Source of the DNA: a virus
Lineage: Duplodnaviria; Caudoviricetes
Reading direction: 5' to 3' (one strand)
IMG/VR virus record: IMGVR_UViG_3300021255_004000
Coordinates: 96,001 to 160,000 of that record
DNA: 64,000 nucleotides
Below the pieces are notes generated by a model, which was given only the letters and a program-made list of their open reading frames with translations, did not search any database and was not told the DNA's origin. Position numbers and translations under genes: made by a program. Positions 8,024 to 8,730 of the stretch are shown piece after piece; positions within the stretch are counted from its first letter, which is position 1, and the number at the start of each line of letters is the position of its first letter.

Positions 8024-8730
8024 ATGAGTTGCCTCATTCAACGGGATATGCTTCCCCGCAATACCATCCACATTTCTCAATCCTAGAAGTGGCCAAACCG
8101 TATTTTTGCAATTATCTCTTATTTAGCGTCTTAGTGTAATTGCACCACATTTTATGACGGGGAAGGCGTTTTCGGATTCTCCGAAGAAACCCCGATTAGC
8201 CTACATGTGCGGAACCTAAACCTTCAACTGCTTAGAAGGAAACTTTCCGCGTGGAGCTCTCCTATCAAACCTGCAGCAATAAGGCATACTAGGTCGATTG
8301 TCTACAAGCTCTTGTTCATTTGGGGATGCCCGATTTCTCGAACATGCCTTCCACCACTTTGTTCTTTTTAGACGGTGAACAAAGAATATCCATCTTACTA
8401 CACTTGGGAGTCGAACCCAATTCTCTCATTCCTGAGCGTCCCTATCCCGTTGGACCCGTGCAGCCCTTTTTTCTCCGCTTTCGCAGAGGCGACCAACTCA
8501 ATCCTAGTGCCCGCAAGCCCCGTAAGTTTGTCCTGCCTTTATATGCAGGGTCGATGGTCTAATCATAATTGTTCTTTTAATATCGCCGGCCATCTTTACA
8601 CTAATAAACGATATTAAAAGTTATTTGAACGCAGCTTATTATGAGAACTGTTTCTCCGGATGAAACCTCACAATAAATCCACTCCAAATCGCCGGCTCCG
8701 CCAAACCGAATTATCATCTCTTATTGCAGC
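8024..8730 (-). ncRNA. candidate large ornate structured RNA (GOLLD/ROOL-like context)
   Basis: No credible CDS; many helices, GNRA tetraloops on minus strand, long-range helix 8720-8730/8273-8283. Confidence 0.6.
8396..8464 (-). ncRNA. tRNA mimic with GNRA tetraloop instead of anticodon loop
   Basis: Acceptor GCTGCAC/GTGTAGT, D stem GTCC/GGAC, CTCA-GGAA-TGAG, T arm TTGGG-TTCGACT-CCCAA. Confidence 0.75.

Follow-up and report, generated by a model that had tools for sequence, protein, structure and literature searches.

An RNA-only unit behind a phage tmRNA

The 64-kb stretch of viral DNA analyzed here (64,000 nucleotides (nt), positions 96,001 to 160,000 of IMG/VR record IMGVR_UViG_3300021255_004000, hereafter the window) is a section of a large phage genome that encodes phage helicases, a DnaB-like helicase, and a prohead protease, and its closest cultured relative, as judged by the helicase, is Bacillus phage G (45% identity), which points to a rumen Firmicute as the likely host. 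Near-identical and related contigs of 220–300 kb were obtained from gut and rumen metagenomes, and the RNA unit that is the subject of this study belongs to a ~300-kb rumen phage. Genes run on the minus strand, and 1.6 kb without a credible gene separate the open reading frame (ORF) ending at 9153 from that starting at 7536. This interval holds a ~1.5-kb RNA-only unit composed, in minus-strand order, of a transfer-messenger RNA (tmRNA), a 270-nt 5′ module, a 69-nt element shaped like a transfer RNA (tRNA), a 372-nt core, a tRNA that looks derived from tRNA-His, a structured stretch of 350 nt, and an intrinsic terminator (Table 1).

An earlier note on this DNA, made without database searches, had placed a candidate RNA of ~700 nt next to the tmRNA. 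The stretch indeed starts 3–6 nt behind the tmRNA, depending on whether the ARAGORN or the Rfam border is used, and the complementary segments quoted in the note are all present in the sequence. Positions 8024-8733 are poor in ORFs on the RNA (minus) strand and are bounded by the tmRNA and the tRNA at 7948-8023, with a G+C content in the RNA region of 0.46 vs ~0.37 in the surroundings. The tmRNA is the first gene of the unit and has its discriminator A at 8737; CCA is encoded neither there nor in any of the three tRNA-shaped RNAs of the unit. No conserved ORF was found on either strand, antisense ORFs varying in frame and length among relatives, and the conserved core contains 1–2-nt insertions and deletions in relatives (alignment A4). 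A 25-codon reading frame in the most conserved stretch of the core was dropped because such insertions and deletions, of 1 and 2 nt, interrupt it in relatives.

Table 1 Features of the RNA unit (window positions; paired segments are separated by a slash)
Feature	Position	Strand	Remarks
tmRNA	8734-9114 (Rfam) or 8737-9114 (ARAGORN)	-	RF00023, 59 bits vs gathering threshold 47
5′ module, ~270 nt	8465-8733	-	H-type pseudoknot, two long hairpins, variable hairpins, conserved block
H-type pseudoknot	8692-8733	-	S1 8733-8728/8702-8697, crossed by S2 8709-8705/8696-8692
Hairpin P2	8636-8676	-	Outer 8676-8667/8645-8636, inner 8666-8662/8654-8650
Hairpin P3	8574-8620	-	CTTTTAATATCG/CGATATTAAAAG (8574-8585/8609-8620)
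Conserved block	8489-8525	-	First copy of CUAGGAUUGAG; nearly invariant in types A and B
Optional GAAA-capped hairpin	8473-8488	-	In the window, L006, L007, and L009; absent from other type-A relatives
tRNA-shaped element, 69 nt	8396-8464	-	Cloverleaf with cut anticodon arm; CCA not encoded
Core module, 372 nt	8024-8395	-	Most conserved part, 72–100% identity across lineages
Hairpin H1	8384-8377/8364-8357 (within 8321-8384)	-	Invariant
Helix enclosing H2	8356-8350/8326-8321	-	Invariant; GAAA-capped H2 is 8344-8338/8333-8327
Long-range helix	8311-8306/8259-8254	-	Around variable hairpin 8300-8284/8277-8262
Invariant helix	8250-8245/8214-8209 (8209-8250)	-	Around helix 8239-8235/8225-8221
UUCG-capped hairpin	8172-8195	-	Variable region; longer and different in L006, L007, and L009
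Candidate pseudoknot	8108-8148	-	8148-8146/8136-8134 and 8143-8137/8114-8108
Hairpin with second CUAGGAUUGAG copy	8068-8092	-	Loop AGGAUUG; 100% paired, one compensatory pair (L038)
Terminal hairpins	8024-8059	-	8059-8054/8046-8041; GCAA-capped 8037-8024, abutting the tRNA
Apparently His(GUG)-derived tRNA closing the core	7948-8023	-	ARAGORN, Rfam, alignment
Rest of unit	7597-7947	-	Third structured stretch, third tRNA-like element, terminator (A6, A10, terminator scan)

A new family of structured phage RNAs

To place this region among known RNAs, we searched the Rfam 15 covariance models against positions 7500-9300 at E-values up to 10 and against the whole window at E-values up to 0.1. The first search returned solely the tmRNA and tRNA, with no match to GOLLD, ROOL, group I introns, RNase P, or any other large RNA, and the second yielded no match to a large-RNA family. 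GOLLD (RF02032, gathering threshold 150 bits) was likewise not matched in the relatives L006 and L039 at E-values up to 1, and the ROOL model found nothing in the window or in the relatives searched. The identical search does detect a GOLLD-like RNA in another rumen phage, L034 (79.5 bits, E 1e-20), which served as a positive control. A likeness to RNase P RNA or to group I introns, seen by eye in short motifs, has no Rfam support. No description of these RNAs was found in a literature search, and a blastn comparison of the whole island with 50,697 phage records gave no match. Given that no Rfam family is matched, GOLLD and ROOL included, the RNA region represents a new family of structured phage RNAs, which settles in favor of novelty the choice the earlier note had left between a new class and membership in GOLLD or ROOL.

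Relatives were collected in three ways. The exact sequence of a 78-amino acid (aa) protein encoded just downstream occurred in 259 contig-index blocks, from which ten loci were fetched; homologues of the same protein led to a second lineage (L024-L026); and a scan of JGI metagenomes with a 20-nt motif gave L035-L039 and L034. The RNA island is 72–100% identical across these relatives, which amount to about five lineages, and the family was reached only via ENA, Logan, and JGI metagenome contigs: exact and degenerate motif scans of IMG/VR found nothing, nor did an exact motif scan of GTDB, with one genome for each of 185,579 prokaryote species. Beyond these lineages, the more remote homologues of the 78-aa protein sit in different gene neighborhoods, from which the island is missing. 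In two IMG/VR records found through a 396-aa protein, L001 and L002, 16 tRNAs are separated from the tmRNA by a gap of 707 nt; the gap could not be aligned, and model R1 gave nothing significant in the full records.

Conserved structure of the core, the 5′ module, and the tRNA-shaped element

Next, we evaluated covariation in each part of the unit. Since the ~five lineages are mutually related, comparisons with shuffled controls overstate independence, and the robust measures are controls in which pairing partners were slid, together with counts of pairs changed on both sides. The MAFFT alignments are not structural, and type-B hairpins (see below) are partly misaligned. Minimum-free-energy z-scores of −1.6 (core) and −2.7 (5′ module) were too modest to be used as evidence. 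By these measures, structure is under selection in the core, the 5′ module, and the tRNA-shaped element.

For the core, RNAalifold predicted 77 pairs from 16 sequences (A4), including 16 compensatory ones. When one pseudoknot helix was added to this fold, 99.3% of cells were paired and 17 pairs were changed on both sides, as against 6.6 ± 1.5 for shuffled (0/500) and 0–3 for slid controls. About 190 nt show 94% column identity across lineages, and long unpaired stretches are invariant. H1 and the invariant helix around H2 take up the first ~75 nt of the core. Four helices are best supported. The 7-bp helix of the candidate pseudoknot occurs in four sequence variants with 4 compensatory pairs and is crossed by a 3-bp helix that changes from U-A to C-G in 4 sequences, making a pseudoknot probable. 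The first terminal hairpin (8059-8054) adds 3 compensatory pairs, and so does helix 8239-8235/8225-8221, in which CCUUC/GAAGG becomes CCACA/UGUGG in L024. The long-range helix has 2 independent compensatory pairs, and in the variable hairpin it encloses, which is shortened in L039 and absent in L024, one G/A position covaries with C/U. The UUCG-capped hairpin shows a single G-C to A-U change, in L038 (read from A4, not pair-counted). H2 varies solely by switches of G-U to G-C or A-U and has an invariant GAAA loop (8334-8337), a third GNRA loop in addition to the two discussed below; because these switches are sensible only on the minus strand, this is the RNA strand.

Several pairings proposed by the earlier note fared unevenly against this fold. 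CTTTGTTC/GAACAAAG and GCGGAA/TTCCGC fit the consensus but are themselves invariant, the latter surrounding a helix with 3 compensatory pairs. AAGGCAT/ATGCCTT is broken at one pair in 8 of the 13 sequences with letters there, and CTTCCCCG/CGGGGAAG at one pair in 11 of 15; in both cases the variable bases covary with partners in local hairpins instead. ATGCCTT and CTTATTGCTGC both lie within hairpin 8300-8284/8277-8262, where part of each pairs with the other. The two GNRA-capped hairpins do exist, although the GAAA-capped one in the 5′ module is restricted to some lineages and the GCAA loop next to the tRNA becomes GUAA in two relatives (L011 and L037), L024 having a different hairpin at that place.

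The 5′ module exists in two types, A (the window) and B (L004, L024, and L039), with a mean column identity of 64% (A5) and nearly invariant blocks. Its structure is 93.5% paired and includes 18 compensatory pairs, compared with 7.5 ± 1.9 for shuffled and 1–6 for slid controls. The module opens 3 nt behind the tmRNA with the H-type pseudoknot, in which S1 (98.8% of cells paired) and S2 (100%) each carry 2 compensatory pairs by pair count and helix scan, and loop 1 varies in length. Between types A and B, P2 differs by 4 compensatory pairs. The P3 helix, CTTTTAATATCG/CGATATTAAAAG, is upheld as originally proposed, with 4 pairs changed on both sides; type B has another hairpin in this position (read by eye from A5).

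The tRNA-shaped element, which the earlier note had termed a tRNA mimic, is a cloverleaf by covariation: its 20 pairs are present in 96.7% of cells, and 6 of them are compensatory, vs 1.8 for shuffled and 0–1 for slid controls. The acceptor stem has 7 bp, the D stem 4 bp with GG in its 10-nt loop, and the T stem 5 bp with UUCGACU. Its anticodon arm, by comparison, has 4 bp and a 4-nt GGAA loop (~5–7 nt in relatives) and thus departs from the normal 5-bp stem and 7-nt loop with U33; neither ARAGORN nor the Rfam tRNA model called the element in the window. In type B, the same slot is occupied by an unrelated tRNA-like element that scores 39.3 bits with the Rfam tRNA model. The element preserves the parts recognized by RNase P, RNase Z, and the CCA-adding enzyme, and not the decoding loop.

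The unit could in principle be a decayed, functionless remnant of a tRNA array: L001 and L002 have 16 tRNAs beyond their ~707-nt gap, and the window has tRNA-like relics with odd anticodon loops. Against this, more than 35 pairs are compensatory, and the near-invariance of the core in lineages that differ there by ~28% indicates purifying selection on a fold that is not a cloverleaf. We therefore regard decay as barely credible.

Presence in rumen RNA libraries

Sequences of the unit are present in RNA libraries. Across 13 runs from sheep and cattle rumen, generated in several studies, 26–36% of sampled words were found, and four runs from four studies (X1-X4) were compared with the locus as assembled contigs with one depth figure each. 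In X2, contigs at 7932-8384 (depth 44) and 8401-9488 (depth 42) compare with depths of 3–8 for neighboring contigs; these two equally deep contigs end 16 nt apart across 8396/8395. X1 contained contigs at 8014-8374 (16.6) and 8440-10413 (44.7), and X3 contigs at 8439-8724 and 8699-9077 (~15, vs ~3–4 in the flanks). The core contig is missing from X3, and gaps in cover were not counted as absence. In X4, a single contig extends across the whole unit, including a homing-endonuclease insertion. Such contigs show presence, and an excess over flanking genes is likely, while ends, strand, and processing are outside their reach; the contig stops beside the tRNA-shaped element in X1 and X2 are a weak hint of processing.

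These data also bear on whether the structured stretches act solely in cis, as leaders and trailers that would aid the tmRNA and tRNA precursors and then be degraded. Their position between RNAs that need processing would suit such a role, as would the hairpin at 8024-8037 that touches the tRNA, the pseudoknot 3 nt behind the tmRNA, and the gain and loss of the optional GAAA hairpin between strains. Conversely, the contigs on the core alone (X1, 8014-8374) and on the 5′ module with part of the tRNA-shaped element (X3, 8439-8724) reach 15–17×, and long invariant unpaired stretches along with ~190 nt at 94% identity exceed what a spacer needs. In addition, L048 encodes a 61%-identical homologue of the upstream protein and a tmRNA with a similar tag, behind which come a short hairpin and then a protein gene, with no such structured RNAs; since its tmRNA has none behind it, a tmRNA of this kind needs no such RNAs. 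Taken together, this makes a role limited to spacers improbable. At the L048 locus, the conserved 118-aa gene and the tmRNA are closely preceded by an IS200/IS605-type Y1 transposase gene (L048:454-864).

One RNA or several

The earlier note had read the stretch as one giant ornate RNA with a tRNA-like domain. A conserved, folded non-coding RNA region is confirmed by the covariation described above; a single ~700-nt fold is not. No compensatory pair supports the 11-bp helix 8730-8720/8283-8273, the one proposed to enclose the tRNA mimic, and its 76.7% of paired cells equals the shuffled mean. L004, L024, and L039 lack the 5′ arm of this helix and L024 also the 3′ arm, the latter arm lying instead in a covarying local hairpin. 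A helix scan of the 5′ module vs the core in the full-length alignment found nothing with more than one compensatory pair. L004, moreover, is a natural recombinant that combines a type-B 5′ half with a type-A core, the switch coinciding exactly with the 3′ border of the tRNA-shaped element. Two further observations favor separable modules: types A and B place unrelated tRNA-shaped elements in one and the same slot, and the first 43 nt of the core recur on their own immediately behind the tmRNA of L034, an otherwise unrelated phage. Because the linking helix fails, no other covarying pairing joins the halves, L004 has exchanged one of them, and the linker keeps the parts needed for processing but lacks those for decoding, two or more RNAs from one precursor explain the locus better than one giant RNA. 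With moderate confidence, we favor two independently folding RNAs of a new family, located in a tRNA-punctuated RNA-only unit and released separately, over one molecule.

In this scheme, a host RNase P would cut at the 5′ side of each tRNA-shaped element and an RNase Z-type enzyme behind its discriminator, and these cuts would release the modules as separate stable RNAs. Their field of action would most likely be a translation- or tRNA-related takeover of the host, or the evasion of defenses, as suggested by the tmRNA and tRNA neighbors and by analogy with GOLLD and ROOL.

The competing possibility is a single GOLLD-like RNA of ~700 nt or more, possibly multimeric, with 5′ and 3′ domains joined via the tRNA-shaped linker. 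The layout parallels GOLLD in its variable 5′ part, tRNA-like linker, and conserved 3′ part, and in its location in a phage tRNA island, and the X4 contig bridges all junctions. Two motifs also recur in both halves: AAUAAGAGAU, a spacer, and CGGUUUGGC are found in exactly two copies in the window, at 8092-8123 and 8700-8725 (0 expected by chance), and CUAGGAUUGAG likewise in exactly two, at 8076-8086 and 8497-8507 (~0.8 expected with one mismatch). This suggests either an old internal duplication or a binding partner common to the 5′ module and the 3′ end of the core. A further link to GOLLD is L034, in whose tmRNA island lies a GOLLD-like RNA that embeds a tRNA; this phage shares with the window a 43-nt block consisting of H1 and its flanks (8350-8392, L034:2277-2319; 100% identical, with nothing else shared). 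The block starts 3–4 nt behind a discriminator in both phages, that of the tRNA mimic in the window and that of the tmRNA in L034. Mobility as a module, protein binding, or targeting by a homing endonuclease could explain it. On the other side, the window matches neither GOLLD nor ROOL in Rfam even though the GOLLD-like RNA of L034 is found at 79.5 bits, no inter-domain helix covaries, the 5′ half alone was exchanged in L004, and the linker has lost the anticodon loop while keeping the recognition parts of processing enzymes. Overall, we consider a single large RNA possible but rather unlikely.

Several points nevertheless weigh against separately released RNAs. With only ~five lineages, contacts between the modules could have been missed if they are tertiary or covary weakly. 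In GOLLD, too, the linker that joins a variable 5′ region to a conserved 3′ region carries tRNAs (10.1101/2024.12.08.627333), so that the same layout can be one molecule. The RNA evidence consists of assembled contigs with one depth figure each, for which DNA carry-over is possible; the X4 contig spans all junctions, so an uncut precursor or DNA exists; and the contig breaks near 8440 may reflect strain variation in a variable loop.

Homing endonucleases, the downstream tRNA, and neighboring genes

The junction between the tmRNA and the 5′ module is a site of insertion. Homing-endonuclease genes lie there in L012, L005, L036, and the X4 contig, where the insertion amounts to 848 nt between 8717 and 8752. 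Those of L012 (2131-2814, SegE-like GIY-YIG with NUMOD3) and L005 (2045-2794, DUF559/Vsr-like) are both free-standing and occupy the same site. Next to the endonuclease site, L003 and L005 keep an additional T arm and 3′ end that are tmRNA-like but foreign. In L034, a terminator directly follows the 43-nt block.

Downstream of the core, the tRNA at 7948-8023 has an 8-nt anticodon loop in the window and a loop of 6, 7, or 8 nt among strains of this lineage, in which it is read as ??, Ser-UGA, or Ala-UGC, and a G replaces U33. In the L024 lineage, ARAGORN calls the same tRNA a proper tRNA-His(GUG). Based on these calls and the alignment, it seems to derive from tRNA-His and to have lost normal decoding. 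The stretch behind it is conserved and folded, with 7 pairs showing compensatory change; for instance, GCGGAAAU/AUUUCCGC is replaced by GUGAGAAA/UUUCUCAC in type B. This stretch includes a third tRNA-like element (~7650-7743) with two alleles of the T arm and ends in a strong intrinsic terminator (7597-7641). The L024 lineage retains only the first ~100 nt.

Directly upstream of the tmRNA lies the gene of a 121-aa protein (9153-9518, minus strand), which is 88% identical between lineages in which the RNA modules diverge far more and which is found ahead of the tmRNA even in L048, a distant relative. Neither this protein nor its neighbors have a Pfam match, and its AlphaFold model is unusable (mean predicted local distance difference test score 48.7). 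The high-depth X2 contig extends from the RNA unit into this gene, and the protein may work together with the tmRNA or the structured RNAs. Further upstream, positions 10627-10854 (minus strand) weakly match the Rfam model of the Citrus tristeza virus replication signal (30 bits vs gathering threshold 100); the match partly overlaps ORFs and is probably due to chance.

Comparison with known systems

The closest parallel is GOLLD, which is likewise large, ornate, and phage-borne, occurs in tRNA islands, and combines a variable 5′ with a conserved 3′ region, between which a tRNA can sit in the linker (10.1101/2024.12.08.627333). The window shares this setting, being of phage origin and having a tRNA-shaped element between a variable 5′ module and a core, which is a feature of context and no proof of membership. 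Unlike GOLLD, its RNA has no model match, another helix layout, and a linker that is not a decoding tRNA, and separable modules are favored. In L034, the GOLLD-like RNA (L034:102-585) scores below the gathering threshold of 150, has a tRNA-Leu(UAG) at 187-262 in the linker, and lies ~1.3 kb upstream of the tmRNA, followed by hairpin-rich non-coding sequence at 700-1140. ROOL (rumen-originating, ornate, large) resembles the window RNAs in its rumen habitat, phage origin, nearby tRNA genes, and several pseudoknots, and differs in that its Rfam model finds no match here and that the window modules, at ~270 and 372 nt, are smaller.

Few natural RNAs are known to assemble into cages, and GOLLD and ROOL belong to these. 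The RNAs of the window form an unrelated, further ornate set in the same niche that is physically linked to a phage tmRNA, occurs widely in ruminant gut metagenomes, and is present in rumen RNA-library contigs. They might even constitute a third kind of ornate phage RNA of tRNA islands beside GOLLD and ROOL, in which the modules and linker, kept together or re-associated, would form a particle acting with the tmRNA on host ribosomes or on tRNA-directed defenses, a scenario that we consider speculative and unlikely. The 270-nt module, the 372-nt core, and the whole provide defined constructs for structural and processing assays.

The proposed processing has parallels in mitochondrial tRNA punctuation and in the MALAT1 mascRNA, where a non-decoding cloverleaf marks the RNase P and RNase Z cuts in a longer transcript; these systems differ in being eukaryotic or organellar, and cleavage in the window unit is predicted. 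Within phages, the tRNA cluster of T4 includes small stable RNAs (species 1 and 2; rnaC and rnaD) of ~120–140 nt that are structured, co-transcribed with tRNAs, and released by tRNA-processing enzymes, and seg homing-endonuclease genes are inserted in this cluster. The T4 RNAs are much shorter than the window modules, T4 has no tmRNA, and a sequence relation was neither seen nor looked for. The likeness extends to the insertion of homing endonucleases in the RNA cluster, as with the SegE-like and DUF559 genes of L012 and L005. The non-decoding spacers, swapping modules, and endonucleases at one junction together make the modular rumen phage unit an experiment of nature in the assembly and processing of phage RNA islands.

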